A stretch of DNA of 52,416 nt from a virus (Duplodnaviria > Caudoviricetes). This document shows, one piece after another, positions 1 to 36,346 of the stretch. The first letter of the stretch is position 1. Each line of letters opens with the position of its first letter. The stretch lies in IMG/VR virus record IMGVR_UViG_3300032242_000872, positions 1 through 52,416 of that record; one strand, written 5' to 3'. A model generated the notes under the pieces. It made no database searches. It was not told the DNA's origin and saw only the letters and a list, made by a program, of their open reading frames with translations. Both the position numbers and the translations under genes were made by a program.

Positions 1-1
1 T

Positions 2-241: not shown

Positions 242-247
242 ACCACT

Positions 248-2713: not shown

Positions 2714-2741
2714 TCAATAAAATTAACCCAGCGAGGCACAT

Positions 2742-4694: not shown

Positions 4695-5110
4695 TAGAAG
4701 TCTCTATGGTTCCCTCATCGTATGTAGATACTTGTTGGGACAAGATAGAGCCTTTTGCAGAGAAAGCAGCAAAGTATACCTACGGAAGATACACTGCTAA
4801 TAACATCTATGACAAGGTTAAAGATGATGCTTATCAGATGTGGGTTGCTTATGATGATGGTACGTTTAAAGGTTTAGTAGTAACAGAAGTTGTAACCTAC
4901 CCACAAAGAAAGTTGCTAAGTATGCACTTTTGCGGTGGAATAGAGTTAAAAGAATGGAAAGATCCTATGTTAAAGCTGCTTCAAAGGTTTGGAAAAGACA
5001 TGGGATGTGACGGAATAGAATCAGTCGGAAGACCTGGCTGGGGAAAAGTATTTGAACAAGATGGTTACAAAGCATTATGGGTAACCTATGAATTACCAAT
5101 TGGAGAATAG
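4691..5110 (+). CDS. GNAT-fold virion-associated protein (T7 gp13-like position)
   Basis: 139 aa; GLVVTEV...LSMHFCGG...GCDGIESVGRPGWGKV pattern; lies among ejection genes. Confidence 0.6.
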   Translation: MIEVSMVPSSYVDTCWDKIEPFAEKAAKYTYGRYTANNIYDKVKDDAYQMWVAYDDGTFKGLVVTEVVTYPQRKLLSMHFCGGIELKEWKDPMLKLLQRFGKDMGCDGIESVGRPGWGKVFEQDGYKALWVTYELPIGE

Positions 5111-5112
5111 AT

Positions 5113-7242
5113 ATGGGTAAAGGCTCTAGCCAACCAGCGCCATCACAGCAGTCAACGAATAACACTTCGATACCTTCATATGCACAGCCATATGTTGAGC
5201 AGATGCTTGGGCAGACCGCTGCATTAACAGACATTAATCAAAACCCATACCAAAACTATGGCGGTCAACGTGTTGCAGGGTTTACCCCAATGCAGACTCA
5301 GGCTATGACCAATGTAGGTAATATGCAAATTGCTCCTCAGTTAGGGCAAGCTACTGGATATGCTGGTCAAGCTGGTCAAGGTTATCTTGGTACTACAGGC
5401 GCTGCAATGGGTTATGGTCAGCAAGGTGCTGGATATGGTCAGCAAGCCACAGGTGCTGGGCAGGCATATCAGACGATGGCTACTGATCCTAGCCAAGTTC
5501 AAAAGTACATGAACCCCTATATTCAAGATGCTCTTAATCCACAGCTTCAATTATTAAATCAACAACAAGCATTACAAGGTCAAGGAATTGCAGCAAAGGC
5601 TGCAGGCCAAGGTGCATTTGGTGGTAATCGTGCAGCTTTGTCTCAAGGTTTAAATGCTCAGAACTATGCATTAGCTGGTCAACAAGCGATTGGTCAAGGT
5701 TATAGCGATGCATTTAAAGCAGCTCAACAAGCTCAACAGTTTGGTGCTGACTTAGGTTTACGTGGCTTACAAACTGGCATACAAGGCGCTCAAACAGGTT
5801 TACAAGGAATTAATGCTGCACAAGCTGGTTATGGTGGAGCTAATCAAGCAGCTGCTACATTAGGTCAATTAGGTCAAACTCAGTATGGTCAACAGATGGG
5901 TATCAACCAAGCTCAAATGCAAGCTGGCGCTATGCAACAAGCATTGCAACAACAAGGACTTGATGTTAACTATCAAGACTTCCTTAAAGAGCGTAACTAT
6001 CCATATCAGCAATTGGCTTTCCAATCAGATATGTTGCGTGGCTTACCGTTGTCTCAGTCTGCACAAACTATTTACTCAGCTCCTCCTAGCGCTGCCTCAC
6101 AAATTGGTGGTATTGGAACCGCTGGTTTAGGTATCTATGGTATGTCTGGAGGCTTTAAAGCCAAAGGAGGTATGGTAGGCGAAGGCTATGCCAAAGGCGG
6201 TAAGATTAGCTATGCAAGCGGTGGTGATATCTCAATGATGTCTACCGAGCAATTACAGCAATTATTAGATAGTCCAACACTGACTCCTATGGAATCAGCC
6301 ATGATTGAGCAGCAATTAATGCTTCGTGCTCGCATGGAGAATAATCCAAAGTCAGCTCAGATTATGAACAGTGGTCTGCAATCTCAAGGCGGTGGTTTAG
6401 ATACCATTCCTTCTGGAGATACATTTAATGCTGCTGGTGGCGGTATTGTAGCGTTTTCTGGAGAGACTGATGGGAGCTTGGTTCGTTCCAGCGAAAGATC
6501 TAGCACTCCAAAACCTATTCGACCAGAGATTAAAGATTATCAAAGTTTTTTAGAAAGTCAAATTCGTTCCTCTTTAGAAAATCAAGATAAAGTAAATCCT
6601 TTTGCTAAGTCTGAAGAACTTCAATCTCAATATGCAGAAGATATGAAAGCTCGCAGAGAACAGCGTCCTTATGAGCTTTTGACAGCTTTAGGATTAGGAA
6701 CTGCGGCTGGAACATCTCAATATGGTTTATCTAATTTAGGTCAAGGCGGTGTTTATGCTCTTCAACAACAGCAAAAACTGTCAGCTGAAGACGCTTCTGA
6801 TCGCAAACTTATGCTTCAACAAGCAGTTGAGCAAGAGAAATCTAAGTATGCCCGTGATACTGGCAAACTTGGTTCTATGCAAACAGCTCTTGGTCAAATG
6901 TATAGTAAAGAGATTGGACTTAAAAACGCTAACGCATCAGCAGCAAGTACTGCTGCATATCGTGATCAATTATTGGCTCAGAAATATGCAACTCTTTGGA
7001 AAGATACATTGGATGACACCAAGAACAGCCTCTTGAAACAAACTAAGTTCAATACTATTTATATGAAAGATCCTGTAAAATTCAATCGTTTAGCTGAACA
7101 AGAGGCAAAACGCAATATGCCTCCAGCTGCTCTTGATATACTTGGAAAAACTCCAGCTTTGATGGATACTGACGTTAGTAGCGGAACTTCTGCGCCAACT
7201 GGAAAAGCTCCAGCATTGCCAAAAGGTTTTGTAATACAGTAA
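5113..7242 (+). CDS. DNA ejection/pilot protein
   Basis: Gln/Gly/Ala-rich 709 aa; YMNPYIQD and GAFGGNRA motifs of podovirus DNA-transfer proteins. Confidence 0.65.
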   Translation: MGKGSSQPAPSQQSTNNTSIPSYAQPYVEQMLGQTAALTDINQNPYQNYGGQRVAGFTPMQTQAMTNVGNMQIAPQLGQATGYAGQAGQGYLGTTGAAMGYGQQGAGYGQQATGAGQAYQTMATDPSQVQKYMNPYIQDALNPQLQLLNQQQALQGQGIAAKAAGQGAFGGNRAALSQGLNAQNYALAGQQAIGQGYSDAFKAAQQAQQFGADLGLRGLQTGIQGAQTGLQGINAAQAGYGGANQAAATLGQLGQTQYGQQMGINQAQMQAGAMQQALQQQGLDVNYQDFLKERNYPYQQLAFQSDMLRGLPLSQSAQTIYSAPPSAASQIGGIGTAGLGIYGMSGGFKAKGGMVGEGYAKGGKISYASGGDISMMSTEQLQQLLDSPTLTPMESAMIEQQLMLRARMENNPKSAQIMNSGLQSQGGGLDTIPSGDTFNAAGGGIVAFSGETDGSLVRSSERSSTPKPIRPEIKDYQSFLESQIRSSLENQDKVNPFAKSEELQSQYAEDMKARREQRPYELLTALGLGTAAGTSQYGLSNLGQGGVYALQQQQKLSAEDASDRKLMLQQAVEQEKSKYARDTGKLGSMQTALGQMYSKEIGLKNANASAASTAAYRDQLLAQKYATLWKDTLDDTKNSLLKQTKFNTIYMKDPVKFNRLAEQEAKRNMPPAALDILGKTPALMDTDVSSGTSAPTGKAPALPKGFVIQ

Positions 7243-7258
7243 TTTAGAAAGACACAAT

Positions 7259-10200
7259 ATGCAAAAAGCGGTTAATCCCCAGACGGGGGAGGTGTTGTTC
7301 CTTGTTGACAATCAATGGGTAAAACCAACACAGACCGCTATCAACCCCGATACTGGGGAGAATGCATTCCTTGTAAATAACGCTTGGCAAGTCATGCCAA
7401 TGCCAAAGCCAGCTGAACCTATCGTTTCTCCAGAAGAGCAAATGATGTCTTCTGTTGGACAAACTAGCCAACAACAGCCTTCTGCAGGTGTACTTTCTGG
7501 GACTACCCTACCAGCTAATCCGCCCCCTATGGGTAACAGAGATATCTCGGAAGTAGGCACAGCTTTACCTATTACTAAAGATCTGCCCAAGCTAGATGTC
7601 AGCCAAATGCCTACTGCAGAGGAAAGGGCTGTTGCTAATTTTGGTATTAGCCCTGAGATGGGTTTTGGCGAGAAGGCTTTACGCACTGCTAAAGGCGCTT
7701 TATATGGCGCATCCACAGGTTTAGAACAAAGCTGGGCTGGTGGAGCACGTTTAATTGCCGATATAACTGGTATTAATAAAGAAGAAGTAGCCTCTGCAAG
7801 CAGACAACTTGGTAAAGAACAGGCTGCCGTTGAAAAAACCTATGCCCCTGAATATGGATTTAAGATAGCCAAAGATATTGGCTCATCGGTAGTCCAGAAC
7901 ATTCCAACGATTGGAGCTGGTTTATACGCTGGAACCAGTTCTGCATTAACAAATATGTTCCTGCAGTCATTTACTCAGACTTATGACGACAGTCGTAATG
8001 AAGGATTAGGCGTTGGTGAAAGTACGGTACGCTCTACCCTCTATGGTACAGCCGAGGCATTAGGCGAAAGCCTAGGCCTTCCTAACCTATTAAAAGGCGT
8101 TAAAGGTGCTTTAAAGGGCGTTCCTACGGTAGATCTTGCCAAGGACATGGCTAAGTACATCCTTAAAGAGATTCCAGGAGAGCAGTTCACCTATGTGTCT
8201 CAGTTTTTGACAGACAAAGGGTTTGGTCTAAACCCAGAAGCTGGATTGACAGAGTTCTTACAGGGTGCTCAAGATACCGCTTTGGTCACGGTTGGCCAGA
8301 CTGCCATTATGGGTGGTGGTCTTGGGGCTACCAACAAGATTCTCAAAGAGCTACGTGGTCTTCACTCTAAGGGTGATGAAGGCATTCCTAATGCAGCTGA
8401 TATGGTTAAGCAAGCTGGATTTAATTTTCAAAGACCAGAACCACAAGGGCAGGTAACAATTCAAGGTGCTCCACCAGAGGCGGTAATGCCACCTCAAACA
8501 GCTCCTACTGCTCCAGGAGAGGTTGCTCCATCACGAGCTGTTATTCAAGAAGGTGAGATTGAAGTTCCAGAAGAGGAGGGGGTAACAGCTGTTACACCTA
8601 CAACTGTAGTTCCTAAAAAACCAACATTTGTAAAGAAACCCAATGATCCAGCCATTGAAGCAGAGGCAATAGCTATTGCTGATGAGCTAGATAAGCTAGG
8701 TGAAAAAGGATTTGCTATCGGATTTCGTTCTAAGATTGAAAAAGATGGTGGTCTAACTAAGTCAGAAGATTTGAATTTCTATCGTAATAAATTGCTTGAG
8801 GCACAACAAAAAGCTGGCAAGGCTGAAGAAATGCCACAAGAAAAATTTAATATTGAAAACTATTTGCCAAGCTCAAATAAAGCAGAAGTTAAGCGATTTA
8901 ATCAGTACGTGCCAAATGCGCCAGAACCTGTGCGGGAAATGGTTGGCAAGTCTAATGAATACTTACAAAAGCTTACAGACAAAATCAACAGCCTTGGTTA
9001 TAAGGTATTGGATGTAGACACCAGAGCGCCACAGGAAATTCAAGAATTAAAAAGAAAAATTAGCAATATTGCTGGATCAACATTTGCCTATACAAAAAAT
9101 GCAGAGCATATTGATAAAAACAATCGTTTTGCTAATCCAGACAAATTTGAAAATATTGCTCAGACTTTAGAAAAAGATTTTGCAGATGCAGATCAATTAC
9201 TTGGTATAGAGGCTGCTAAACCACAGGCAACTGAAGTTGTGACTGAAGAAGAACAATTACCTAAATTCTCTCAGGCAGAAAACGTACCAGTCATTCCTGA
9301 AGGGCAAACTGTAGATTCTACTAATCCAGAAGTTCTTAAAAAATTCAATGAGATTATTGAAACTTATGAACCAGAAAGTGGTATCTCGCAGGAAGATAGT
9401 TTTTTATCTGCTATTAATGAAGATGTTCAATCAAAAATTGAAGAAACAAAAGCGCCTCCATTTAAAAAGGGATATGTATCTACAGTTAGTTATGAAGTAG
9501 CCCCATTTAATGGTGGATGGGTAGGCGGTAGCAGCATTATGAGTGCTACTGGTGGCTATGCTTCTGGAGCCAGTATTTGGGATAAGGTTTACCCAACTAA
9601 ACAAGAAGCAATCAATGCACAAATTGATGAACTTCGTGATTCAGCTAAGATTTATGGCAATACCAAAGCATTGGCATGGTTAGATTCTGTTGATCCACGT
9701 TTAACCAAAGAATCCAAAATTGAAACTAATAAAGTTCGTCAGACTGAGAAGAAAACTAAAGCCAAGCCAATAGAAAAGCCTGTTGAAAGGGTAAAGCCAG
9801 TAGAGGCTAAAGAAGAAAAACCAGTTACTACTGAAGCTCTTGAAAAAGCCGTAACTAAAGCTGGAGAGAAAGTTGATTACGACAAGATCAAGAAGTCTGC
9901 TGAGAATCAAATAAATCAAGCCATCAAGCGCACTAAATACATGACCGAAGAAGCGTACAAAGATGCCAAGATTCCAGATGCGGAACGCTTTGTCACTATC
10001 AAACTTGAGGGCGATGGATCATTTAAAGTAAAGAATAATAAAGAACGTCTTGAAGAGTTTAAGAAAAAGTTAGTAAACGCTATCAAGCCTAAACAAGCTG
10101 GCACTCCACGAAGAGAATGGGAAAGCGCAGCTGTAGGATTTAAGGCAGATTCTGCATTTAAAAATTTCCTAAATGAGAAAGAGCCTGAAACAGCGATAGC

Positions 10201-13200
10201 TATTGCCAACTTGACTAAACTAGATATTAAAAAAGTTAAATTAAATGATGCCCAGCAAAAGGTATTAAACGACTACATTAAAGCTGCCAAAGAGGTTGGT
10301 AATGAGCCAATGATGGAGACTATTAAGTCTAAGCCAGGCGCTAACGTAGCTCGTATTGCTAAGTTATTAGGCCCACAGCTATATGGCAGCATGAGTGATA
10401 TCTCTAATGTGTCAGTTAAAGAAATGCTCCAAAACTCGTTTGATGCCATAAAAACTATGATTGAAAATGGCACGATTACACAAGGCAATATTAATATTGA
10501 TGTAGATAAAGACACTCGTACCATTGCAGTCACTGATGATGGTAGCGGTATGGATTCAGATGTTTTAGCAAATACTTTCTTTACCATTGCTGGAACAAAA
10601 AAGGAAACTGAGTTTGGATCTGGTGGTTTTGGTATTGCTAAAATGTTATTTTTATTTGGTAATGAAAACGTAGAAGTTATTACCATGCGTGATGGCAAAA
10701 TCAGCAGTATGCAGTCTACTGGCAAAAACTTGATGGCTGCCTTAGAAGATCCAGCATTTGCCCCTAATATTGAAGTAGATGACAAGAGCGAGTGGCCTGA
10801 CTACGAGAAGATGTTTCCTAAAGGTCATGGAACATTTGTACGAGTAACTGTTCCAAAGGAATACAAGGATCAGTCTACTGGTGAAATGAAAGAGATTAAG
10901 TTCACAGACAGTAAATATGCTTATCCTGTTTTGGAAAATAGCCCGTTGTTTGCTAACATCAATGTTAAGTTTAACGATGATACCGTTTGGGATATGGGTA
11001 CTGAGTTCCCAGCAAACGAATACACAACCTTTGTTGATGCTAATTTTGATTGGGGAACTGCTCGAATTTATGTTTCTAAAGATCAAAAAGATCAGTGGGG
11101 AGATAACCTTCACATTCTTTCCAATGGTTTATGGCAATTCAGCCAGGGAATGAAGTTAAATCCAATGGAAATGTTTGGCAAAAACATTCCACATAGGTTT
11201 TACCTTGATGTTGTTTCTAAAGTTAAGCCAGATGAAGAGGGCTATCCATTCCAACTAAACCGCCAAGGATTTACCAAGGAAGCTGAAAGCGATCTGGATT
11301 TAATTAAAAAATATTTGACGCTGCACTACCAGCAAAAAGACTTTGATACATCAGCTAAGACATTTGGCACAGTCCAATATCTTGGAAGAGAAAGAAGTTT
11401 ATTTGGTAAAGATAAAGGAATTAGCGTATCCGAGACAATTAACTTAATTCCAGAATCTCCAAAAGTAAAAGAAGTAGATGGAATTGAAGAAGGTTCTCAA
11501 GTAGAAGTTAAAAACGGTAAATTAATTGTTAACGGCAAAGTTGTACCAGTATTAACGCCAGAAGATATGAAAAAAGCTGCCATAAACATCGATGAATTGC
11601 AGATACCTCAAAGTAGTATTAACCCTAAGAAGGTTATGATCCATGACAATCTTGAGGTTAAAAATACAGATGGCACATTTTCTCCTATTACTCAGTTAGC
11701 TATAGATGAGTTTGGTGAAAGATTTCATGACTTTATGTTTAATCTTGGTGATGCTTTTATGGCATTAAGAGATGCTACAGCAAGATTGATGCCAGCAGAT
11801 AGAAAAGGCATAGACTATAAAAACTTAGCCAAAGAAGCTATTGGTATATCCTTTGACAAAGAATATCGTGGCGTTAGTATTACATTGCCATTCAAAGGCT
11901 TATTTATTAACCCAGCATTCCCAGAGTTTATAGATACGCCAGAAGAGGCAGCTTTGGGTATGTTTGGAACTATGATCCACGAACTAGCTCACCACAAGGT
12001 TCGCAACCACGGGGCTGATTTCCCAGCGGAAATGCAACGTATCATTATTAAATTGGAGTCCGCACCTTCTTTAGATATTCAGCAGCTCAAGAAAGATTTA
12101 ATCTTGACAGTTAAAGAAAATATGGACATTATTAAGTTCTTAAATAAAGAGGGATCAAATGAATCTAACAGGCCTATTGGACAGCGTTTCAAAGATAGCC
12201 AGTACCAAAAACGAGGCGAAGATACTTCTGCAGACCTTTCTAAACGAGGGAAGCAACAGCGGGGAGAACCCAGAGTATCTAGCGAGTCTGAGTCAGGGAT
12301 TGAAGATATTAGAGAAGAGCGAGAACTTGAACCAGTTTCGTCAGAAGGTAAAGGCTCAAAGTCAGACATAGAAGAAGTACAAAATCTTCTAAAGAAACAC
12401 GCTCGTTCTAATACTCCATTACATCCTAGTAATGAAGTAGCAGATGCCTTTATGGGATCTGTGCAAAAAGGCAAAAAGATCTACTCAAGGGTTAAAGAAA
12501 ATCCAATGATGGTTGCTCCAGCCATGATTAGTAAGTTAGATCGTGCCACTACCTTTGCTCGTAACAAAAATATCTGGTATGGAACTGGCCTAGAACAAGC
12601 AGACTTTGCAAAATACAATGGCCAATTGCGCACTGGTCAAGGAGATGCTATTGCATCATTAGCAGTAACGAATGCTATTCATGCGGGCCACGTAGGAACC
12701 CAAGTATTAATTGAAGGAAATTTACAATATAACCCTGTTACCCAACAGTTTCAATCTGTAAAGAGTGATAAGTCAATGGCAAATGTCATTACTTTGAAGT
12801 CTAAACTTATGAAAAAATTAGGAGATCAAGAAGCGACTGATCTTATTAATGGCTATTTTGAGGCTAAACGTTCACGTTCAATTATTAATGAATATTTAAA
12901 TCGTGAAGGGGCTTATGTCAAAGCGATTGAAGAGGGTGAAGATGAGGCTACAGCATCTAAGAATTTAAAAAATATTGAAGTAGCTATGCAAAAAGTAAAC
13001 ATGGATGATGATCAAATTGATGAGTTCATTGCCATGGATAAGAAGTTCCCAGAGCTACGTCAAATGATGGATAACTGGACTGCAGTAAACCATAATATGT
13101 TAGATAACATGGTTTTCTCAGGAGTCATTAGTAAGCGCAGAGCAAAAGATTTAAAAGCTATCAAGGACTATGTTCCTTGGTATAGGATTATGGATGAGCA

Positions 13201-15136
13201 AGCTGATATTCATCAGCCTACTGGTGGTGTAGTTCGCACCTTAACAAACGTAAGCCAGGACAAAAAGTTTAAAAAAGGTGTAGTAAACAGAGATATTGAT
13301 GACATTGTGGATAACATGATTCACAACGTTATGATGATGACTCGAAATTCTATGCGTAACTATGCTGCAAATCGTGTAGTTGCCGAATATGGAACTAGAA
13401 AAGAAAATGGCAAATTAAAAGTATTTTCAACTGAAGGTCGTGATAGCGATGGAGTACGTTTTAATATTATTGCTAATGGCCGTAGAATTATTGTTCAGAT
13501 AAAAGATCCGCTGATTGCTGAGTCAGTCATTGGTATGGAAAACATTGAGATTCCAATGAACAAAATATTGGCTGCAATGGCTAACGGCTTGCGTAGAACT
13601 ATTACCTTCTCTGGTGTATTCCAAGTTAAACAGTTATTTATGGATGCTCCTACAGCTGCTTGGGTATCTGGACTTAAGAATCCATTTGCCGTATGGGGAG
13701 GCACGTTTAGTTCATTTTTACAGGCATTAAGAAATAATGATCCAATTGTAAAGATGTTTAAATCTTATGGTATTGGTGGTTTCCAATCAACATCTAGAAC
13801 TCCTGAGAAAGAATTAAAGCTAGAAATTGGATTATTAAATCATTCAAACTATGCCAAATTAATTAAATTCTTAGATCACGTTGGTGATTCTTCTGACTAC
13901 GCTCAACGTAGAGCTATCTACAAACGGGTAATGAAAGAAACATCAAAAACTGGTAAATGGCAAGATGGTGATCAGATGCAAGCGTTGTTGCAAGCTAACA
14001 ATGTTATTGACTTTCTTAAACATGGTAGTGGTCAAACGGCTCAGTTTTTAACCAGGACTGTATCTTTCATGAACGCTTATGCACAGCAGATTGATGTACT
14101 AGCTCAGACATTAGCTGGTGGTGGACTCAAGGGTAAGGATCGCCAAGAAGGACTCAAGCGCATGGCAATTACAGGTGGCTTATTGTCAATGACAACCCTG
14201 CTTTATTGCATGGCTGTAGGCGCTGACGATGACTATCAAGAACTGGATGATCAAACTAAGGCACGTAATTTATATATTCCTGGTTCTAAAAAAGCATTTG
14301 GCCATGCCGTAGTATTACCAATGCATACTTCAGCCAGTTTCTTCTTTAAGGCAATACCAGAGTTACTCTATAACAAGGTAATGAATCAAGGAACTAATAA
14401 CGAGATGGATAATACTCGTTTGCGTACTGCCTTAAAAGAGGCTGCAATTGATTCTTTATTAGGGCCAAATGCCGTTCCAACTGGTGCAAAGCCATTTATT
14501 GAGATTGGTTTAAATAGAAACTTCTTTACTGGCGGTCAACTTACTCCAAAAGGAATGGAAAATTTAGAGGCAGTTGAACAATATACTTCAGCTACTTCTG
14601 AGCTTGGCAAAGTATTTAGCGCCCTTACATCGGTTCCTGGAACAGATAAACGTGCATTAAATCCAATTGAGGCAGATCATTTGATGCGCAGTTTGTTTGG
14701 TTCTGTTGCTGCAATGTCAATGTGGGGATCTAATATGTTTGCTGGAGATCGTCCAGAAGGCCGTGTTAAAGACATTCCAGTAATTGGTCAGTTTGTATTA
14801 CCAGAAGTTCCACGTGGTAATGAGGCTATGTTCTATGACTTTAAAGAGCGTTCTGATGAAAAGTACAACACTTACATGAGAATGCTAGACCGCAACAAAA
14901 TTGATGAAGCCGATCAATATCTTGAGAAAAATATGGGATTGGTAGCTGCCCATGATTATGTAACCTCTATGGATAGTGGCTTAAAAGAGCTTAATAAGCA
15001 GATCCGCAATATTGGTGAAACGAAAGATCCTGATTACACCAAGTCGGAAAGACGTAAAGACATTACTGATCTTCAAGAAACAAAGAAAGATATTCTTGAT
15101 GGAATTGGTTTAATCAGAAAAGATTCAGGCCTGTAA
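7259..15136 (+). CDS. Large polyvalent ejection protein: GHKL ATPase, zincin HExxH domain and LPD38-like C-terminus
   Basis: 2625 aa; KEMLQNSFDA / DDGSGM / GSGGFGIA / GHGT motifs; MIHELAHHKVRNHGADF; PFIEIGLNRNFFTG near the C-terminus. Confidence 0.75.
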   Translation: MQKAVNPQTGEVLFLVDNQWVKPTQTAINPDTGENAFLVNNAWQVMPMPKPAEPIVSPEEQMMSSVGQTSQQQPSAGVLSGTTLPANPPPMGNRDISEVGTALPITKDLPKLDVSQMPTAEERAVANFGISPEMGFGEKALRTAKGALYGASTGLEQSWAGGARLIADITGINKEEVASASRQLGKEQAAVEKTYAPEYGFKIAKDIGSSVVQNIPTIGAGLYAGTSSALTNMFLQSFTQTYDDSRNEGLGVGESTVRSTLYGTAEALGESLGLPNLLKGVKGALKGVPTVDLAKDMAKYILKEIPGEQFTYVSQFLTDKGFGLNPEAGLTEFLQGAQDTALVTVGQTAIMGGGLGATNKILKELRGLHSKGDEGIPNAADMVKQAGFNFQRPEPQGQVTIQGAPPEAVMPPQTAPTAPGEVAPSRAVIQEGEIEVPEEEGVTAVTPTTVVPKKPTFVKKPNDPAIEAEAIAIADELDKLGEKGFAIGFRSKIEKDGGLTKSEDLNFYRNKLLEAQQKAGKAEEMPQEKFNIENYLPSSNKAEVKRFNQYVPNAPEPVREMVGKSNEYLQKLTDKINSLGYKVLDVDTRAPQEIQELKRKISNIAGSTFAYTKNAEHIDKNNRFANPDKFENIAQTLEKDFADADQLLGIEAAKPQATEVVTEEEQLPKFSQAENVPVIPEGQTVDSTNPEVLKKFNEIIETYEPESGISQEDSFLSAINEDVQSKIEETKAPPFKKGYVSTVSYEVAPFNGGWVGGSSIMSATGGYASGASIWDKVYPTKQEAINAQIDELRDSAKIYGNTKALAWLDSVDPRLTKESKIETNKVRQTEKKTKAKPIEKPVERVKPVEAKEEKPVTTEALEKAVTKAGEKVDYDKIKKSAENQINQAIKRTKYMTEEAYKDAKIPDAERFVTIKLEGDGSFKVKNNKERLEEFKKKLVNAIKPKQAGTPRREWESAAVGFKADSAFKNFLNEKEPETAIAIANLTKLDIKKVKLNDAQQKVLNDYIKAAKEVGNEPMMETIKSKPGANVARIAKLLGPQLYGSMSDISNVSVKEMLQNSFDAIKTMIENGTITQGNINIDVDKDTRTIAVTDDGSGMDSDVLANTFFTIAGTKKETEFGSGGFGIAKMLFLFGNENVEVITMRDGKISSMQSTGKNLMAALEDPAFAPNIEVDDKSEWPDYEKMFPKGHGTFVRVTVPKEYKDQSTGEMKEIKFTDSKYAYPVLENSPLFANINVKFNDDTVWDMGTEFPANEYTTFVDANFDWGTARIYVSKDQKDQWGDNLHILSNGLWQFSQGMKLNPMEMFGKNIPHRFYLDVVSKVKPDEEGYPFQLNRQGFTKEAESDLDLIKKYLTLHYQQKDFDTSAKTFGTVQYLGRERSLFGKDKGISVSETINLIPESPKVKEVDGIEEGSQVEVKNGKLIVNGKVVPVLTPEDMKKAAINIDELQIPQSSINPKKVMIHDNLEVKNTDGTFSPITQLAIDEFGERFHDFMFNLGDAFMALRDATARLMPADRKGIDYKNLAKEAIGISFDKEYRGVSITLPFKGLFINPAFPEFIDTPEEAALGMFGTMIHELAHHKVRNHGADFPAEMQRIIIKLESAPSLDIQQLKKDLILTVKENMDIIKFLNKEGSNESNRPIGQRFKDSQYQKRGEDTSADLSKRGKQQRGEPRVSSESESGIEDIREERELEPVSSEGKGSKSDIEEVQNLLKKHARSNTPLHPSNEVADAFMGSVQKGKKIYSRVKENPMMVAPAMISKLDRATTFARNKNIWYGTGLEQADFAKYNGQLRTGQGDAIASLAVTNAIHAGHVGTQVLIEGNLQYNPVTQQFQSVKSDKSMANVITLKSKLMKKLGDQEATDLINGYFEAKRSRSIINEYLNREGAYVKAIEEGEDEATASKNLKNIEVAMQKVNMDDDQIDEFIAMDKKFPELRQMMDNWTAVNHNMLDNMVFSGVISKRRAKDLKAIKDYVPWYRIMDEQADIHQPTGGVVRTLTNVSQDKKFKKGVVNRDIDDIVDNMIHNVMMMTRNSMRNYAANRVVAEYGTRKENGKLKVFSTEGRDSDGVRFNIIANGRRIIVQIKDPLIAESVIGMENIEIPMNKILAAMANGLRRTITFSGVFQVKQLFMDAPTAAWVSGLKNPFAVWGGTFSSFLQALRNNDPIVKMFKSYGIGGFQSTSRTPEKELKLEIGLLNHSNYAKLIKFLDHVGDSSDYAQRRAIYKRVMKETSKTGKWQDGDQMQALLQANNVIDFLKHGSGQTAQFLTRTVSFMNAYAQQIDVLAQTLAGGGLKGKDRQEGLKRMAITGGLLSMTTLLYCMAVGADDDYQELDDQTKARNLYIPGSKKAFGHAVVLPMHTSASFFFKAIPELLYNKVMNQGTNNEMDNTRLRTALKEAAIDSLLGPNAVPTGAKPFIEIGLNRNFFTGGQLTPKGMENLEAVEQYTSATSELGKVFSALTSVPGTDKRALNPIEADHLMRSLFGSVAAMSMWGSNMFAGDRPEGRVKDIPVIGQFVLPEVPRGNEAMFYDFKERSDEKYNTYMRMLDRNKIDEADQYLEKNMGLVAAHDYVTSMDSGLKELNKQIRNIGETKDPDYTKSERRKDITDLQETKKDILDGIGLIRKDSGL
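8582..8595. repeat. 14-bp palindrome copy 1, GTAACAGCTGTTAC
   Basis: Perfect palindrome inside a Pro/Thr linker of the giant protein. Confidence 0.9.
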
Positions 15137-15204: not shown

Positions 15205-15546
15205 TTATTTTATCTCTATTTTGACCATACCAGCAACCTCTTCTTTAAAGAAAAAGCTCGGTAAAAATCGTTTGTCATTGACCTTTAGTGCATCTGCCAG
15301 CCCATCTAAGCCAGATTTAATGGATGCAACCATGTTATCTGCGTCTCTATGGCGTTTATCTGGTGGATAAAAAGTAATCTCTATAGGTATTTTCCCTTCC
15401 CCAGCAGGTGCTATTAGCTTGGCTTCAAGTGCTAAAGCCCAGCAAGCAGTCCTATATTCTTTTTTCTTTTTCGCCTTCTGAGCCCAGTGCAGACTTGAGT
15501 TAGGGGAAAGTTCTTTGGGAGGCCAAGGTAGGGTAACTTTGTTCAT
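15205..15546 (-). CDS. rusA: RusA-family Holliday junction resolvase
   Basis: LPWPP..SPN; FYPPDKRHRDADNMVASIKSGLDGLADALKVNDKRF. Confidence 0.8.
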   Translation of the reverse strand: MNKVTLPWPPKELSPNSSLHWAQKAKKKKEYRTACWALALEAKLIAPAGEGKIPIEITFYPPDKRHRDADNMVASIKSGLDGLADALKVNDKRFLPSFFFKEEVAGMVKIEIK

Positions 15547-15617: not shown

Positions 15618-15647
15618 TCTTGGTAGTTTAACTGCTAGGAGAACTAA

Positions 15648-26135: not shown

Positions 26136-26480
26136 TTATAACTCTAGCGGATCGAATCCAAGCTCTTCTGATACGACCTTGGTGCGCCTTCTGAACTCAG
26201 CATCATGGTGAGACCATTTGGAGGTCTTCCAACGGCTCATATGGACGGCTTCATGAGCCAGAACACGGATCACTGTCGATAGGTGACCACATTTCTTTTC
26301 TGAAATAGTTATAACGTGCTCGTACTTCTCGCCATCATCATATAAATAGGTTCCCATAGCATCGTCTTGATCTATGACAAACTTAATCTGCTCTGGCAAT
26401 GGCATAGGCCAGCGAACAAACGGCTTCATGCAATACATAGCCGAATACAGATTTTTAATAATTGATGGGGTCAATTTCAT
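26136..26480 (-). CDS. SprT-like zinc metalloprotease
   Basis: VLAHEAVHM...HHDAEF; start moved to MKLTPS (ATGA overlap). Confidence 0.7.
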   Translation of the reverse strand: MKLTPSIIKNLYSAMYCMKPFVRWPMPLPEQIKFVIDQDDAMGTYLYDDGEKYEHVITISEKKCGHLSTVIRVLAHEAVHMSRWKTSKWSHHDAEFRRRTKVVSEELGFDPLEL

Positions 26481-27457
26481 ACTTTGTTTATGCAACCACG
26501 AAACTCAAATTCACCATTTTCTTCATCACTGACCATAATAAGCTCTGGCATTAACATTCTACCTTGGTCAAAAGATAGCATTACAAAGCCTGAACGCCAA
26601 TCCTTGGGGCTATCCTCACAGTACTCGAAGGTAGATGACATAGGATCTGCAAGGCAGCCAGTCTGGATTCCCCAAAAGTTTCCTTGGTAATTTGAAATTG
26701 GTTGGGCAGCCAATACGTGTGTATGGCCAGTAATGATGTTTGTGTTACCAGCTGCTTGCAAATTGCTGTAACCTGCCGTGCGTCCGCCCTTATAACGGTG
26801 TTTTACCACAGTGTTCTCGCCAATCCAAAAGCTCCAACAAGTTTCCCATTCTGGGAAATGATACTTGAGAGAAAAGCCATCAACTCCGCTATACTCGGGA
26901 ACTTTATTAACCAGCCATGACTCATAGCGCATATCGTGGTTACCCAACGTCCATATGAGTCTGCAGCCTGCTGGCTTATGCTTAACTATCTCATCTAAGT
27001 GGTAACGACAAGCGCTCAACTCTTGCAAAACGCTGGGTTTTTGGTCGTAATTGATTGATGGGAATCGACTGAGAACTTGGCCATCAAAAGCATCTCCGTT
27101 ACAAATAATGACTTGGGGCTTAAATTCTTTTATCATTATCAGCAATGCTTTAAATGCCGTGGTAGTTGTTTCAGTGAAGTGAGCATCTGAAAAAACAATT
27201 ACCCTTTTAACTTTATCTACATCAATGCCTCTGCGGACATTGTGCGCTGCAAGATCTACTTTATTTTTGGGTTTTTTTTCATCTCGCTGAGAGTTAGTTG
27301 TAGGCAATTCAATGCCATAACGTATTTCAATATTACTTCTTCTGGTCATGGCACTTCGAGGATTTATTCCTAATTCCTTGCCAACCAGAAGTGGACTTCC
27401 TAATTTATTCCAAAGTTTAATAAACTCTTTATCCGACTTTTCATCATATCGTGCCAT
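26477..27457 (-). CDS. Calcineurin-like metallophosphoesterase
   Basis: SDAH, NGDAFD, GNHD, KH, GHTH motifs. Confidence 0.85.
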   Translation of the reverse strand: MARYDEKSDKEFIKLWNKLGSPLLVGKELGINPRSAMTRRSNIEIRYGIELPTTNSQRDEKKPKNKVDLAAHNVRRGIDVDKVKRVIVFSDAHFTETTTTAFKALLIMIKEFKPQVIICNGDAFDGQVLSRFPSINYDQKPSVLQELSACRYHLDEIVKHKPAGCRLIWTLGNHDMRYESWLVNKVPEYSGVDGFSLKYHFPEWETCWSFWIGENTVVKHRYKGGRTAGYSNLQAAGNTNIITGHTHVLAAQPISNYQGNFWGIQTGCLADPMSSTFEYCEDSPKDWRSGFVMLSFDQGRMLMPELIMVSDEENGEFEFRGCINKV

Positions 27458-27559
27458 CCCAACCCCTTGTATTTAAACGGAATTTAATACACTTTTCGGA
27501 ATATAACATAAAATTATGTAAGTATTTACATATATTTTTACAAAATAAGGCACTACATA

Positions 27560-27589
27560 TTGATCTATTCCAGTCTTTTGTGCTATATT
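27560..27589 (+). promoter_or_regulatory. Promoter of the candidate sRNA
   Basis: TTGATC, 18 nt, extended -10 TGc-TATATT. Confidence 0.5.
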
Positions 27590-27593
27590 TAGT

Positions 27594-27713
27594 ATACCAA
27601 GCCCACTCTTGGTATCGCACTCCTTTTCTCCTAGCAGAGACTTGTGCAACGCAAGACCTCGGATCTACGATCCCCAAGACCCTCAGACTAAAAACCTGGG
27701 GGTCTTTTCTTTT
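27594..27713 (+). ncRNA. Candidate trans-acting antisense sRNA (~120 nt)
   Basis: 5' stem ATACCAAG/CTTGGTAT, unpaired CACTCCTTTTCTCCTAGCAG, two small hairpins, terminal 11-bp stem and U-tract. Confidence 0.55.
27676..27713 (+). terminator. Rho-independent terminator of the candidate sRNA
   Basis: AAGACCCTCAG / CTGGGGGTCTT stem (one G-U) followed by TTCTTTT; no convincing plus-strand CDS upstream. Confidence 0.7.
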
Positions 27714-27717
27714 GGGT

Positions 27718-27731
27718 GTAACAGCTGTTAC
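27718..27731. repeat. 14-bp palindrome copy 3, GTAACAGCTGTTAC
   Basis: Intergenic, 40 bp upstream of the -35 of the parB/helicase/primase promoter. Confidence 0.9.
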
Positions 27732-27771
27732 GCTAAGATCCGCAATAAATACTTAATACGTAAAAATACTC

Positions 27772-27800
27772 TTGCAAATATTTTTGTATTGAGTTAATCT
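27772..27800 (+). promoter_or_regulatory. Sigma70-type promoter of the replication operon
   Basis: TTGCAA, 17 nt, TAATCT with an AT-rich upstream region. Confidence 0.6.
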
Positions 27801-27805
27801 GATTG

Positions 27806-28075
27806 GGCTAGGTGAAAAGGAATGTGGATAAAGTGCTTAATTGCGCTTGTCTCTCATTTCATTTCACCATCGCTACACCATATAGGTCGGACATAACAGC
27901 AGCTATATGGGAAGAGCCCTTACTGTGGGAGTAGATTTGTAACAGGGGAAGAGATGGCGAAGCCAGAGTCTCTAATCGAACGTCTGGCGGGTGCAGTGGC
28001 TCCAAAAAGCAAACTGTTGAAGGCAACCTAGGAGAGGCTAGGTGCGTTCACCAAAAAGCAATGTCGAGATGAGAC
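27806..28075 (+). ncRNA. Structured ~270-300 nt leader RNA or origin-associated element
   Basis: No ORF; about six consecutive stems, e.g. GGTGAAA/TTTCACC, CCATATAG/CTATATGG, ACCTAG/CTAGGT; CCAAAAAGCAA repeated. Confidence 0.5.
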
Positions 28076-28103
28076 TGGACTAATAGTTAACAAGGGGGGT
28101 GGT

Positions 28104-28520
28104 GTGAAGACCAAGCCGTTTAATCAGGCGGTGCATGATGCGTGTGATCCAGTGGCCAGAGATGTAGTGATTGAGAAGATCAAAGCCAAGTGGGGATGGG
28201 ATGCCAAGCCGTTTGATAAATATAAAGTGGATCTGATTGTTGAAAATGAGTTCATGGTGCCTATCTTTTACGCAGAAGTAGAGATGCGTGATTGGGAGGA
28301 TTGCCCGTTTAACACCATCCATGTACCAGGACGCAAGAAGAAGTTGTTTGATAACGATATGCCCACTACCTACTTTGTAGTCTCCAAGAGCTTAAAAAGT
28401 ATCTGGTATTGCAAGGCAAAGGATATACTTAATTCCCCTCTAGTGGAAATTAAGAATAAAGCAGTAAAAGAGGGCGAATATTTTTATGATGTGCCAATAG
28501 AAAAGTGGAGAAAATTATGA
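28104..28520 (+). CDS. PD-(D/E)XK-fold endonuclease-like protein
   Basis: DKYKVDLIV...YAEVEMR...IHVPGRKKK. Confidence 0.55.
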   Translation: MKTKPFNQAVHDACDPVARDVVIEKIKAKWGWDAKPFDKYKVDLIVENEFMVPIFYAEVEMRDWEDCPFNTIHVPGRKKKLFDNDMPTTYFVVSKSLKSIWYCKAKDILNSPLVEIKNKAVKEGEYFYDVPIEKWRKL

Positions 28521-29353
28521 AGGTTTTAAACATATCCAACATCAGAATTGATGGGGGAACTCAAGCACGTATTGCATTAAATCAAGATGTTGTTAAAGAC
28601 TATGCAGAAAAGATGCGTGATGGCGAACAATTTCCAGAGATTACCGTATTTTTTGACGGCTCAGACTATTGGCTGGCTGATGGTTTTCATCGTTACTTTG
28701 CTACTAAATCAAATAGCACAGTCAGCATCAATTGTGATATCAAGAATGGCACATTAGATGATGCAATTCTGTTTGCTTTTGGTGCTAATGGTAAGCGTGG
28801 TTTAACTATGTCTGCGGAAGATAACCGCAATGTAATTTATGCCATGCTGCGCCATGCAGAGTGGAGTAAGTGGTCTAACGCTGCAATTGCAAAGCACGTT
28901 GGTGTATCAAAGATGACAGTAGGCCGTGTTAAAGCTACGCTAGATATCAAAGATGAGGATAGTGTCAAAAAGTTTAAAGATAGGCACGGCAATGAATCAA
29001 CAATGGAGACTAAGAATCTCAAGTCTAAAAAACCCACCAAGCCTGATGTAATAACGGCTAATCCTTTTGCAGAATATGATGAAAAGATTAAAGAGCTAAC
29101 TGATACCATCATTGAGCAGGATAAAGAGAATCAAATACTGCGGGATCAAATTGCTATTGGCCAGTGGGATGCCAGCGATATAGAAAAGATTGATGTCCAA
29201 GATACCATCAAGGATTTGCGTGAACAGATCCGTATCCTTGAGATTGATAACAAGGCTATGCGTGAGAGCCGTGATATGTTTCAAAATCGTAACTCAGAAC
29301 TAATGAGATCTTTAAAAGCAGCGCAGAACAAACTAAAAAAACTGGAGGGATAA
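28517..29353 (+). CDS. ParB-like protein (ParB/Srx N-domain, HTH, coiled coil)
   Basis: GTQAR, YWLADGFHR, ANGKRGL, WSNAAIAKHVGVSKMTVGRVK, C-terminal heptads. Confidence 0.8.
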   Translation: MKVLNISNIRIDGGTQARIALNQDVVKDYAEKMRDGEQFPEITVFFDGSDYWLADGFHRYFATKSNSTVSINCDIKNGTLDDAILFAFGANGKRGLTMSAEDNRNVIYAMLRHAEWSKWSNAAIAKHVGVSKMTVGRVKATLDIKDEDSVKKFKDRHGNESTMETKNLKSKKPTKPDVITANPFAEYDEKIKELTDTIIEQDKENQILRDQIAIGQWDASDIEKIDVQDTIKDLREQIRILEIDNKAMRESRDMFQNRNSELMRSLKAAQNKLKKLEG

Positions 29354-29514
29354 TGAAAGACTATGCACCATATCTAATCAACGCTAGAAAACTTTTGCGT
29401 GGAATAGAGGAAAGTACTAATAAGAGAGAATATAAAAAGGCCTTTGAATTAGCTTATCATCTAGGAGAGTTGTCTGAGATGTTAAAAGAGTCTTTGTTGC
29501 ACATGAAAAAATAG
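29353..29514 (+). CDS. 53-aa hypothetical protein (not in ORF track)
   Basis: GGAGG RBS and TAATG coupling; MKDYAPYLINARKLL. Confidence 0.5.
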   Translation: MKDYAPYLINARKLLRGIEESTNKREYKKAFELAYHLGELSEMLKESLLHMKK

Positions 29515-31230: not shown

Positions 31231-32053
31231 AGACTTTGCTAAATCCCATGGGCTGCTTATTGAAAGCACTATTCCTTTCCGATGGGTATCTACGCCAACA
31301 GAAGATCATCCACGCAAACGTAACGGCAGATATAAATTCATGGGTGATATAGGTTGGGTTCAAAACTGGGCTACGATGGATAAACCAGCCCTGTGGAAGA
31401 TGGATGGTAAATTTTCGCTCTCTCCCGAACTATTAAGAGAGAGAAATTCCGCCTTCGGTCAGCGCCAAAGACTAGCTGATAAGGCCGCAGCCAAAGCTGG
31501 CTGGATCATGCACCAGACCAAGAGCGATCTGCATCCATATTTAAAGGAAAAAGGATTCCCAGAGGAGGAGGCCTCCGTCTGGGTTAAGGATGATAAGAAA
31601 CTAATCGTCATACCGATGCGTATAGCGGGGAAGTTGGTGGGCTGCCAGCTCATCGATGAACAAGGGCAGAAGAAGTTCCTCTATGGACAGATTACGAAGG
31701 GGGCATCTTTCACCATTGATGCAAGAGGCATCCCGATTCTTTGTGAGGGGTTTGCCACGGCTCTGTCCGTTCAGGCCGTGATGCGAGCAAACAAAATCCC
31801 TTACAGAATTGAGGTCTGCTTTTCGGCAGGAAACCTGAAGGAAATAGCTAGTCGGCACATCAACGGATTCATCGTTGCCGATAATGATCCCAATGGTATC
31901 GGAGAGTCGGTTGCCAAGCAAACAGGCAAACCTTATTGGATCTCCGACACAATCGGGGAGGATTTCAATGATTATCATCAAAGGGTGGGCTCTTTCAAGG
32001 CAAGTCAGTCGTTAAAGAAGACCTATATTCTTGCATCTTCCGCAAAAACTTAG
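31220..32053 (+). CDS. TOPRIM-domain primase (P4 alpha/TraC N-terminal-like, COG4643 type)
   Basis: HPYLKEKG, QLIDEQGQKKFL.G, CEGFATALS, FSAGNL, VADND, DFND. Confidence 0.85.
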   Translation: MRFEDFAKSHGLLIESTIPFRWVSTPTEDHPRKRNGRYKFMGDIGWVQNWATMDKPALWKMDGKFSLSPELLRERNSAFGQRQRLADKAAAKAGWIMHQTKSDLHPYLKEKGFPEEEASVWVKDDKKLIVIPMRIAGKLVGCQLIDEQGQKKFLYGQITKGASFTIDARGIPILCEGFATALSVQAVMRANKIPYRIEVCFSAGNLKEIASRHINGFIVADNDPNGIGESVAKQTGKPYWISDTIGEDFNDYHQRVGSFKASQSLKKTYILASSAKT

Positions 32054-32306
32054 CCTCAATCTGTCTGATGCGTTCTTTAGTTAGGTCAAAAGCCCGTCCA
32101 CACTCTGACAGGCTATGACCAGCTACCCTCATCTTAACAATTTCGTAATGTCTATCAATGGCTGCCTGACGATGATATTTCTGATACATCTTGGAAAAGA
32201 CTTCCTTCGTAGGGAAGTCCACCAAGACGATCACATCAACATTCCCAGTATTTCTAATGGGAATTTTACCGCCACAGAATCGTAGATTAACCATCGTAAC
32301 CGCCAT
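31995..32306 (-). CDS. Sigma70 region-4-like HTH protein
   Basis: GHSLSECGRAFDLTKERIRQIEAK. Confidence 0.65.
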   Translation of the reverse strand: MAVTMVNLRFCGGKIPIRNTGNVDVIVLVDFPTKEVFSKMYQKYHRQAAIDRHYEIVKMRVAGHSLSECGRAFDLTKERIRQIEAKFLRKMQEYRSSLTTDLP

Positions 32307-34167: not shown

Positions 34168-34241
34168 AAGCCCTCCTAGCAGATAGTTATGATTACCAAA
34201 TGGCAATCCCTATGCCCCGTAGGGCATGAGGATTACAGCAC

Positions 34242-35256: not shown

Positions 35257-35330
35257 TTTTAAAACTCCTAGCAGTTGAACATAGACCCCGTGGGGGGTTT
35301 CGCTGGGATCTCACCAGCTCATCAGTATGT

Positions 35331-35965: not shown

Positions 35966-35976
35966 TTGTAAAACTC

Positions 35977-36120
35977 CTAGTTAGATTCAAGAAAAGAAAC
36001 AGCAAGAACAACGCAACCCAGCAACAGATTGCCAGCAACAAACACGGCAGAGCAGCCACCAAGCCCGCCAAGAACAGCACCGAACAAGTGAGCAGCAGCC
36101 AAAGGGATATAAGCGTCCAT
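35977..36120 (-). CDS. 47-aa membrane peptide (not in ORF track)
   Basis: TAATG coupling; MDAYIPLAAAHLFGAVLGGLGGCSAVFVAGNLLLGCVVLAVSF. Confidence 0.45.
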   Translation of the reverse strand: MDAYIPLAAAHLFGAVLGGLGGCSAVFVAGNLLLGCVVLAVSFLESN

Positions 36121-36302: not shown

Positions 36303-36346
36303 TTTATAAACTCCTAGCAGATGATTAAAAAATAAACTACCTACCG

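Follow-up and report, generated by a model that had tools for sequence, protein, structure and literature searches.

In this study, we describe a gene for a small RNA (sRNA) in the phage of IMG/VR virus record IMGVR_UViG_3300032242_000872 (Duplodnaviria; Caudoviricetes). The window, that is, the whole stretch of DNA that was analyzed, is the complete record of 52,416 nt (41% G+C, with a completeness estimate of 82%). The sRNA unit spans positions 27560 to 27713 on the plus strand, from promoter through terminator, and the gene as modelled (27590-27713, +) has a length of ~118 to 124 nt. It belongs to a covariation-supported sRNA family that is absent from Rfam 15, and it has two classes of complementary sites: a private class that co-varies with the RNA, located in the leader of the adjacent replication operon, and a public, invariant class in the ribosome-binding sites (RBSs) of early genes. 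Taken together, we consider it reasonably likely that 27590-27713 (+) is a trans-acting antisense sRNA of ~120 nt, similar in kind to the c4 and CI RNAs, that represses replication and early genes.

Conservation and structure of the sRNA

A self-contained sRNA gene on the plus strand had been proposed in an initial annotation made from the letters of the DNA alone, and the proposal is borne out by 38 homologues with covarying helices, G·U pairs that form on the plus strand only, and a conserved promoter and terminator. G001, the closest relative, has kept the hairpins and the 10-nt seed (which is antisense to the RBS motif discussed below); its terminator has compensatory changes, and the stretch just 5′ of the seed is replaced. 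A search via a 74-amino-acid (aa) gene of the window gave 22 related loci, several of them with an antisense copy of the motif inside a homologous unit. Searching IMG/VR with a gapped pattern returned 75 stretches, from which a filter for the promoter anchor and a T-run left 37 distinct sRNA sequences; the remainder were chance matches in coding sequence. A covariance model (R1) added one more (L103), which brings the family to 38 distinct homologues on IMG/VR phage contigs with scores of 65 to 123 bits, the window copy scoring 123.3 bits. Starting from the neighboring metallophosphoesterase gene, the sRNA was found only in L002 among the 80 loci kept of 224, and weak matches to R1 were obtained in L035 (23.9 bits) and L048 (20.6 bits). 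No match was obtained by blastn of 27400-28100 against 50,697 phage records, and an exact 20-mer of the seed region was found in none of the stretches in IMG/VR. A pattern of seed plus helix 2, run against 185,579 species genomes with lysogens and hosts in mind, hit 68 stretches, none of which (0 of 68) matched R1; they are taken as chance matches, and divergent copies could be missed by such a pattern.

In the model-guided alignment of the 38 sequences, 94.9% of the cells are paired, compared to 31 to 49% in slid controls; the alignment was fitted to the imposed structure, which inflates pairing somewhat, and both slid and shuffled controls are therefore given. Compensatory changes on both sides were found in 18 of 26 pairs, and all four helices covary. 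Cells with two-sided changes number 134, compared to 43.4 ± 4.8 in column shuffles, and none of 500 shuffles reached 134. In the raw sequences, helix 1 switches between UACCAAG/CUUGGUA and GUCAG/CUGAC, and helix 3 changes from GGAUC/GAUCC to GGUGA/UCACC in 12 sequences. In the terminator (T1), pairing reaches 99.7% of the cells, and compensatory changes were seen in 7 of 10 pairs. MAFFT with RNAalifold alone recovered helices 2 and 4 only, and helices 1 and 3 needed the model-guided alignment. A U·G pair of helix 2, present in 37 of the 38 sequences, can form on the plus strand only; further G·U pairs occur in helices 2 to 4, and the T-run is also on the plus strand only. The structure is assigned to the plus strand because of these G·U pairs, the plus-only T-tract, and the conserved promoter P1. 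The core of the seed, CCUAGCAG, is invariant (38 of 38), and the segment 5′ of it is hypervariable (alignment A4). With Rfam 15 (4227 families), a cmscan of 27450-28110 at E ≤ 10 gave only RF02932, to which we return below, and a chance SNORA64 match (E = 6.3), and a scan of the whole window at the gathering thresholds gave RF02932 only. Judging by title, none of the papers listed on phage-encoded sRNAs concerns this family.

Promoter P1 (27560-27589, +), located by consensus scan, has the −35 element TTGATC (27560-27565), an 18-nt spacer, and a TG-extended −10 element, TGCTATATT (27581-27589). Across the 38 homologues, the −35 element is TTGACA in 21, the spacer is 18 nt long in 33, TG precedes the −10 element in 32, and the latter is TATATT, TACATT, or TATACT in all of them. 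The true 5′ end of the sRNA is probably near 27595, where the 5′ hairpin starts (helix 1, 27595-27614, +), in which all six modelled pairs are changed on both sides. It is followed by an unpaired linker (27615-27640, +) that consists of a conserved CGCAC, a variable segment of 7 to 9 nt, and the seed CUCCUAGCAG (27628-27637) with the invariant core at 27630-27637. Helices 2 (27641-27655) and 3 (27661-27673), both on the plus strand and supported by compensatory changes and G·U pairs, precede the intrinsic terminator T1 (27677-27713, +), a G+C-rich stem of 10 to 11 bp (27677-27705) followed by the U-tract UCUUUUCUUUU up to 27713. The sRNA folds with −35.5 kcal/mol (z = −3.76; none of 200 shuffles was as stable), and the seed is unpaired in the centroid fold. 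With its own promoter, an unpaired conserved seed, and a terminator hairpin with U-tail, the gene has the architecture of an Hfq-type trans-encoded sRNA. In contigs of one run that is labelled metatranscriptomic and is probably DNA, relatives of the phosphoesterase gene and of the RF02932 RNA are covered, and 27107-27813 is not.

Some features vary around this common plan. In the minimum free energy (MFE) and centroid folds of the window sequence, GCAC of the linker (27617-27620) pairs with GUGC of helix 2 (27645-27648), which places the seed in a loop of ~23 nt. The variants GCGU (L188 and L190) and UUGC (L150) each have a possible partner elsewhere in helix 2. In other subfamilies of the sRNA, closing helices surround the seed, CAAGUC/GACUUG or UACCGUCA/UGACGGUA, which may be an alternative way of seed presentation. 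Between the terminator and the next promoter lies a palindrome, TAACAGCTGTTA (27719-27730), of which the window has two perfect copies and four with one mismatch, compared to 0.26 expected. It sits in a 45-nt stretch that is absent from G001 and present after the terminator in L190.

The antisense copy of the motif could also be nothing but the ordinary RBS of a minus-strand GTG open reading frame (ORF; 27620-27444) upstream of the metallophosphoesterase gene, with no sRNA involved, an outcome that the initial annotation had itself named and that we regard as very improbable. A GTG does stand 7 nt after the motif in the window, where it begins a frame of 58 codons overlapping with the 5′ end of the 326-aa metallophosphoesterase gene, and GTGCG recurs 7 to 8 nt after the motif in many relatives. 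However, the ORF is not conserved, ranging from none to 66 codons in 14 genomes (58, 51, 28, 26, 9, 9, 66, 51, 65, 27, 9, 9, none, and 11 codons). In the same genomes, the best minus-strand start is inconsistently placed, 1 to 8 nt from the motif or absent; G019 has no usable start, and G001 has no in-frame minus-strand start at all. Searches of the ORF against PHROG and Pfam gave no match; if it were translated, a hairpin with compensatory changes would have to lie within its first codons, and the G·U pairs and the terminator put the structure on the plus strand. The conservation of CGCAC, which reads GTGCG on the minus strand, is explained by its pairing with GUGUG of the leader described in the next section. 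Overlap with a functional gene on the opposite strand, as in a cis-antisense RNA of the type of P22 sar or lambda OOP, is not seen, the sole opposite-strand ORF being unconserved.

Co-variation of the linker with the leader of the replication operon

The private site of the sRNA lies at the start of the next transcript. A second promoter, P2 (27772-27800, +), is predicted from consensus and conservation only and has the −35 element TTGCAA, a 17-nt spacer, and the −10 element TAATCT. It follows the sRNA terminator in 38 of 38 homologues, with TTGCAA in 36, the 17-nt spacer in 37, and TAATCT, TAACCT, or TATTCT as −10 element in 37. The sequence GCUAGG is found 6 nt after the −10 element in 31 of the 38, which places it at the very start of the predicted P2 transcript. 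In the window, the 5′ end of this transcript, GGCUAGGUGAAAAGGAAUGUGG (27806-27827, +), starts 93 nt past the end of the sRNA and is the primary predicted target: it is complementary to nucleotides 27616-27636 of the sRNA, and the duplex of −27.9 kcal/mol is the best site in the 52-kb window apart from the opposite strand of the gene itself.

The leader bases after GCUAGG(A/G)(G/A) are complementary to the variable linker of the same genome and end in GUGUG opposite the conserved CGCAC. The variable linker segments fall into 18 sequence clusters. Cognate linker:leader duplexes reach a mean of −30.05 kcal/mol with 20.2 paired positions, compared to a mean of −20.36 kcal/mol for non-cognate duplexes. 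Of 32 unique pairs, 21 have the cognate leader in first place and 29 have it among the top three. None of 10,000 permutations reached the cognate mean, and the permutation figures overstate independence because related sequences share ancestry. The duplexes contain 44 G·U pairs and 9 A·C-type 1×1 mismatches, as expected from RNA-RNA pairing on the plus strand and not from a DNA repeat. Co-variation of the sRNA with its targets, for which the initial annotation had proposed a check at the RBSs, is found with the P2 leader, a target it had missed, and not with the RBSs.

The target forms the 5′ arm of a leader hairpin (27806-27874, +; −28.2 kcal/mol, z = −5.47). One such long hairpin is present in all 18 leaders tested (z = −4.4 to −8.2), even though the sequences are unrelated. 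The 3′ arm of the hairpin, rich in C and U, has the same pairing partner as the sRNA linker, namely, the 5′ arm, and carries an imperfect copy of the antisense motif. Further downstream, 3′ of the RF02932 RNA, the sequence CCUAGGAGAGGCUAGGUGCG (28026-28046, +) contains motif-like repeats that are predicted to pair with the sRNA at −22.8 kcal/mol; it could bind the sRNA but is not conserved in G001.

The arrangement in tandem, on the same strand and ~90 nt apart, raises the question of an action in cis, since a read-through RNA would hold both complementary segments. P1 and T1 could then form a promoter-proximal terminated leader, as in the model case of the lambda pR′-tR′ 6S RNA with Q, or pairing of linker and leader within a read-through transcript from P1 could shape the leader of the replication operon. 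We think that this is unlikely. T1 is strong and strictly conserved, and an independent P2 stands between the two segments in all 38 homologues, in 36 with exactly TTGCAA. A decision about termination at T1 cannot depend on downstream sequence that is still untranscribed. Furthermore, the same seed matches RBSs 6 to 12 kb away and on both strands, and no Q-like gene was identified among the ORFs scanned, which is a weak negative.

The RBS motif of early genes

The 10-nt motif CTGCTAGGAG has five exact matches in the window, compared to a mean of 0.08 in dinucleotide shuffles, and none of 100 shuffles reached five. The copies lie at 15632-15641 (+) and at 27628-27637, 34173-34182, 35265-35274, and 36311-36320 (all −). 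Four of them are found 5 to 8 nt 5′ of ATG codons of ORFs with 74, 59, 59, and 60 aa, in agreement with the earlier claim of an RBS shared by four early genes at ~0.1 copies expected by chance; the fifth is the antisense copy inside the sRNA unit, whose promoter, hairpins, and terminator were all located as claimed. TTGACA-type promoters (15589 onward and 36376 onward) precede two of the four. The RBS at 15632-15641 (+) belongs to the first gene (74 aa) of a rightward exonuclease/Erf operon and follows the promoter TTGACA-17-GATACT by ~10 nt, and that at 36311-36320 (−) belongs to the first gene (60 aa) of a leftward early cluster, after the promoter TTGACA-17-GATAAT (36376-36347). The RBSs at 35265-35274 (−) and 34173-34182 (−) serve internal 59-aa genes of the leftward cluster, each with a hairpin just before it. 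The hairpin 5′ of 34173-34182 is homologous in G001, G006, and other relatives, and the downstream gene differs between the window and G001. A variant, AACTAGGAG (35974-35982), precedes a 147-aa ORF, as the initial annotation had noted. Of the 25 (A/T)AGGAG sites linked to ORFs of the window, the four RBS copies and the sRNA copy alone have the CTGC extension, and late-gene RBSs have T-rich contexts or AAGGAG, so that the described distinction between early and late genes holds. Contiguous pairing with the sRNA, read directly from the sequences, covers 12, 11, 10, and 11 nt at the four sites, within the range of 10 to 12 nt given before.

The 9-mer CTGCTAGGA occurs in 2 to 7 copies in each of 16 longer sRNA-bearing records, with a total of 79 compared to 8 for a reversed control. 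Seven records without the sRNA (G002-G005 and W01-W03) have 0 copies of CTGCTAGGA or CTGCTAGGAG. In 14 assembled genomes, 51 of 59 non-sRNA copies stand 5 to 9 nt before the ATG or TTG of an ORF with 45 aa or more. All 22 related loci have the 9-mer unchanged in front of the 74-aa gene, even where protein identity falls to 32%, and the tenth position is taken by G in 11 loci, A in 10, and C in one. The genes behind the motif change between genomes, and the motif stays. The motif set is a lineage-specific and strongly conserved Shine-Dalgarno (SD) extension of early genes, and it is the exact complement of the invariant sRNA core.

What the initial annotation had called an early-gene regulon stands insofar as the core complements a motif that recurs in early genes of 14 of 14 assembled sRNA-bearing genomes; the best predicted target is the P2 leader. 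The check it had named as most decisive in silico, co-variation of seed and RBS, was uninformative: the core of 8 to 9 nt never varies, and outside the core, cognate RBS sites (−22.05 kcal/mol) have no advantage over non-cognate ones (−21.65 kcal/mol; Wilcoxon p = 0.91, n = 59). Hence, the link to the RBSs rests on the conserved, invariant complementary core. At the tenth position the match is partial: UUCC seeds (G014 and L114-116) go with GGAA targets, and AUCC seeds (G012, G015, and G019) and CCCUAGCAG of L103 mismatch their own targets.

It might be argued that the motif functions at the DNA level, as a near-palindromic site (CTSCTAGSAG) for a dimeric protein that binds near promoters, in which case orientation would be irrelevant. 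Eight of the ten positions of CTGCTAGGAG are indeed self-complementary, and several copies lie ~10 nt 3′ of −10 elements. However, the orientation of the motif is strictly tied to the downstream ORF, the spacing of 5 to 9 nt is kept in 51 of 59 copies, and positions 3 and 8 never become symmetric. Nor would binding by a protein make the flanks co-vary as complements with tolerance of G·U, and we hardly believe in this explanation.

Some further observations concern the surroundings of the motif. Internal copies (34183-34240 and 35275-35330, both −, and many in G001-G020) share an arrangement of a G+C-rich hairpin, (U)CUUUG or UCAUUAA, AA, CUGCUAGGAG, 6 to 8 nt, and a start codon. Between genomes, the gene behind this arrangement is exchanged and its hairpin and motif persist, which points to a cassette boundary or a processing site. 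A promoter-like TTTGATATACT is found ~11 nt 5′ of another copy, CCAACTGCTAGGAG, at G010 34645, G019 25840, G020 19556, L103 19502, and L116 12355 (coordinates of G genomes are sRNA-oriented); these copies precede a gene downstream of the sRNA whose product has 268 to 284 aa, a length known for the G genomes only. With TTTGATATACT upstream of further copies, the motif tends to mark the 5′ ends of primary early transcripts, and CUGCUAGGAG serves as a barcode by which early transcripts and gene starts are recognized in these genomes from metagenomes. At G017 33684, the start of the 74-aa gene reads ATC instead of ATG behind an intact motif, which may reflect a sequencing variant, the use of a non-canonical start, or loss of the start. 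A type I toxin-antitoxin system was also considered, as the targets in the window are small and one has a hydrophobic C terminus; it was rejected, the motif of relatives preceding varied ORFs of up to 284 aa.

Model of regulation

Our data show the gene with its structure and strand, the complementarities, and the co-variation; expression, trans action, and the direction and mechanism of regulation are inferred as follows. The sRNA would be made from its own sigma-70-type promoter and ended by the intrinsic terminator. At the primary target, CGCAC, the variable stretch, and CCUAGCAG would pair over ~20 nt with the 5′ end of the P2 transcript, the seed nucleating at the weakly paired GCUAGG and displacing the 3′ arm of the hairpin. 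Since the target comprises the base and the 5′ arm of the leader hairpin, pairing would invade and open it. At secondary targets, the core would pair over 9 to 12 nt with CUGCUAGGA(G) in the SD region of early genes, among them the first genes of both early operons and several internal early genes. Covering of the SD blocks initiation of translation, and pairing over GGAG normally blocks 30S binding. The likely outcome would be repression, by which replication and early functions are damped as the sRNA accumulates, and the role may be dosage or temporal control or interference with co-infecting relatives. A translational shut-off that acts as a temporal switch, the function first proposed, would be one form of it. 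Repression is suggested by the coverage of the SD and by a co-divergence of regulator and target like that of immunity and incompatibility systems, e.g., the P1/P7 c4 RNA (PMC12197685), and an action in trans by the sRNA's own promoter and terminator, the independent P2, and the dispersed RBS sites.

Several points weigh against this model. The homologues share ancestry, and their counts are not independent events. P1, P2, and the terminator are predicted at the level of consensus sequences. The sRNA promoter looks constitutive, and the model does not account for the escape of early genes from repression when infection begins. The linkers of L143 (cognate rank 9, −22.7 kcal/mol) and L184 (rank 16, −19.4 kcal/mol) match their own leaders poorly. 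There is no start codon near the P2 target, the first ORF lying ~300 nt downstream, and occlusion of an SD can therefore not be the mechanism at this site; a constrained MFE fold of 27805-28125, done for one sequence, gave a different but uninterpretable structure with no clear downstream switch. At the RBSs, pairing is short (9 to 12 nt), energetically unremarkable, and, as described, without cognate advantage. The sites 36311-36320 and 35265-35274 are outside the top 20 of a whole-window scan, and the other two score −23.0 and −22.9 kcal/mol, among unrelated purine-rich sites that range from −27 to −22 kcal/mol. Most of the sRNAs leave the conserved AA immediately 5′ of the motif unpaired, and another reader of the motif, e.g., a protein, could explain the conserved RBS core as well.

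An alternative that we hold to be rather improbable is that the sRNA activates or stabilizes its targets, by opening of the P2 leader hairpin or protection of 5′ ends, or that it acts on the P2 leader only, with the CUGCU extension serving another reader such as an RNA-binding protein or a nuclease. A target in the 5′ arm of a stable hairpin has the geometry of anti-antisense activation, and the RBS sites do show no co-variation, middling energies, and an AA that pairing does not explain. On the other hand, pairing over GGAG is established to be normally inhibitory, fast co-divergence of regulator and target appears typical of negative determinants of immunity or incompatibility, and an exact 9-mer complement that is invariant in the sRNA and in 59 mRNA sites is hard to ascribe to chance.

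Genomic context

The gene layout of the window was derived from PHROG, Pfam, and NCBIfam scans of its ORFs. Packaging and structural genes run from 36651 to the window end and continue at 1-15136 (+); they include small and large terminase subunits, portal, head protein, DNA-ejection protein, and tail-fibre-like proteins, as well as a 2625-aa ORF (7259-15136, +) with no PHROG match at E ≤ 0.001. A RusA-like resolvase gene (15205-15546, −) is followed by the operon that is led by the 74-aa gene and continues with an exonuclease, an Erf-like annealing protein, and others (15648 to ~25980, +). The SprT-like gene and the gene of the 326-aa metallophosphoesterase (26136-27457, −) border the non-coding stretch (27458-28103) that holds the sRNA. 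The operon after P2 (28104-32053, +) encodes ORF138, a ParB-like/helix-turn-helix protein, a 53-aa ORF (29353-29514, taken solely from the ORF list), a DNA helicase, and a DNA primase; its PHROG matches are phrog_1033 (2.1e-18), phrog_16 (4.5e-79), and phrog_2249 (6.7e-24), and no family match was found for ORF138. The leftward cluster of small early genes extends from 36302 down to 31995 (−). The product of its last gene (31995-32306, −) has 103 aa, of which the ~45 at the C terminus are similar to sigma-70 region 4, with matches to RpoD-type models at E ~1e-9 that are far under the full-length cutoffs. This protein could act in an early-to-late switch, either as a small transcription factor or by appropriating sigma.

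Genes for a tyrosine integrase (PF00589) and a serine recombinase (PF00239) were found in none of five genomes each (the window and four near-complete relatives), and since no integrase or resolvase of these kinds was found, the phages may be virulent. The nearest deposited relatives by terminase have 52 to 58% identity, pelagiphages among them; the three best matches (023Pt_psg01, DSL-LC04, and HTVC027P) have 0 matches to R1 at E ≤ 1 and 0 copies of the motif.

The leader of the P2 operon contains, in addition to the target hairpin, a Betaproteobacteria-1 RNA (RF02932; 27876-27992, +) that scores 93 bits compared to a gathering score of 49.4. It lies in the 5′ leader of ORF138/ParB-like/helicase/primase genes and 7 of the 11 related loci that were scanned have it at a corresponding position. 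The RF02932 model gives no match to the sRNA itself. A Betaproteobacteria-1 RNA is also present in L057, L027, L025, L075, L074, L032, and L068, which have no such sRNA and differ in their upstream regions; with no R1 match in L057, L027, L025, L075, and L032, the idea that the sRNA is its constant companion was dropped. A literature search on "betaproteobacteria-1" gave unrelated papers only. The main text of Weinberg et al. 2017 (PMC5737381) does not mention this motif. Our data place it in a defined transcript, the leader of a predicted helicase/primase operon under proposed antisense control.

Comparison with known systems

The closest parallel is the c4 RNA of phages P1 and P7, which is described as blocking translation by pairing around an RBS and setting heteroimmunity (PMC12197685). 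Like c4 of the immI region, the sRNA is a small structured RNA with exposed segments complementary to sites that include an RBS, and regulator and target co-vary between relatives, which in c4 sets specificity (PMC12197685). As in a c4-type system, the P2 target belongs to the adjacent downstream transcript in the same orientation and co-varies with its presumed regulator; the c4 RNA is likewise encoded just upstream of the transcript that it regulates. The differences are clear as well. There is no similarity in sequence or structure, and the Rfam family of C4 antisense RNA (presumably RF01695) did not match 27450-28110, so that the sRNA is not a member of it. c4 is processed out of an operon transcript by RNase P, whereas the sRNA has a promoter and terminator of its own, and their conservation argues for a primary transcript. 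The regulated operon encodes a helicase and a primase instead of an antirepressor, an additional dispersed RBS regulon is predicted, and no integrase or resolvase was found in five of five genomes.

Control of a primase-helicase replication operon by RNA only, with an sRNA at the head of the operon that pairs with the leader, is reminiscent of the CI RNA of P4. However, CI of P4 is released by cleavage of the leader itself, and in the lysogen it brings about premature termination. The sRNA described here is a separate transcription unit, its target is the extreme 5′ end of the transcript together with the leader hairpin, and lysogeny is not indicated. A further likeness exists to RNA I of ColE1, CopA of R1, and the Inc RNA of IncI/IncB plasmids, constitutive structured RNAs of ~100 nt that bind the 5′ part of a replication transcript. 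These copy-number RNAs refold or block their target, and fast-diverging pairs of regulator and target define specificity groups. They are cis-encoded on the opposite strand and fully complementary, whereas the sRNA is encoded in tandem with its target, on the same strand, and their complementarity is imperfect and spans ~20 nt. With RegB and RegA of T4, finally, the predicted system shares the shutoff of a set of early phage mRNAs via their SD regions. RegB and RegA are proteins, a GGAG-cutting endonuclease and a translational repressor, whereas an RNA is the predicted agent here, and its targets are marked by 5 additional nt on the 5′ side of the SD.

To our knowledge, few phage sRNAs regulate genes of the phage itself, and the classic ones, c4, CI, sar, and OOP, come from temperate enterobacterial phages. 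The present covariation-supported family comes from an abundant, uncultivated phage lineage of freshwater lakes. Its two-part recognition, private and co-varying on one side and public and invariant on the other, gives clear predictions of cross-reactivity. As a tentative extension of our model, for which we see a possible but limited chance, the virulent lake phages would use an RNA-only control circuit like the incompatibility and copy-number control of plasmids, with the sRNA as its determinant of specificity. The hypervariable linker, matched to the 5′ hairpin of its own leader, would set a private type for the control of replication, and the invariant core, matched to the RBS barcode of the whole lineage, would allow any member to silence the early genes of co-infecting relatives. 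If true, such a circuit would combine private control of replication with public superinfection interference and would give the Betaproteobacteria-1 motif, which within this circuit may be a replication- or primer-related RNA, its first functional context.

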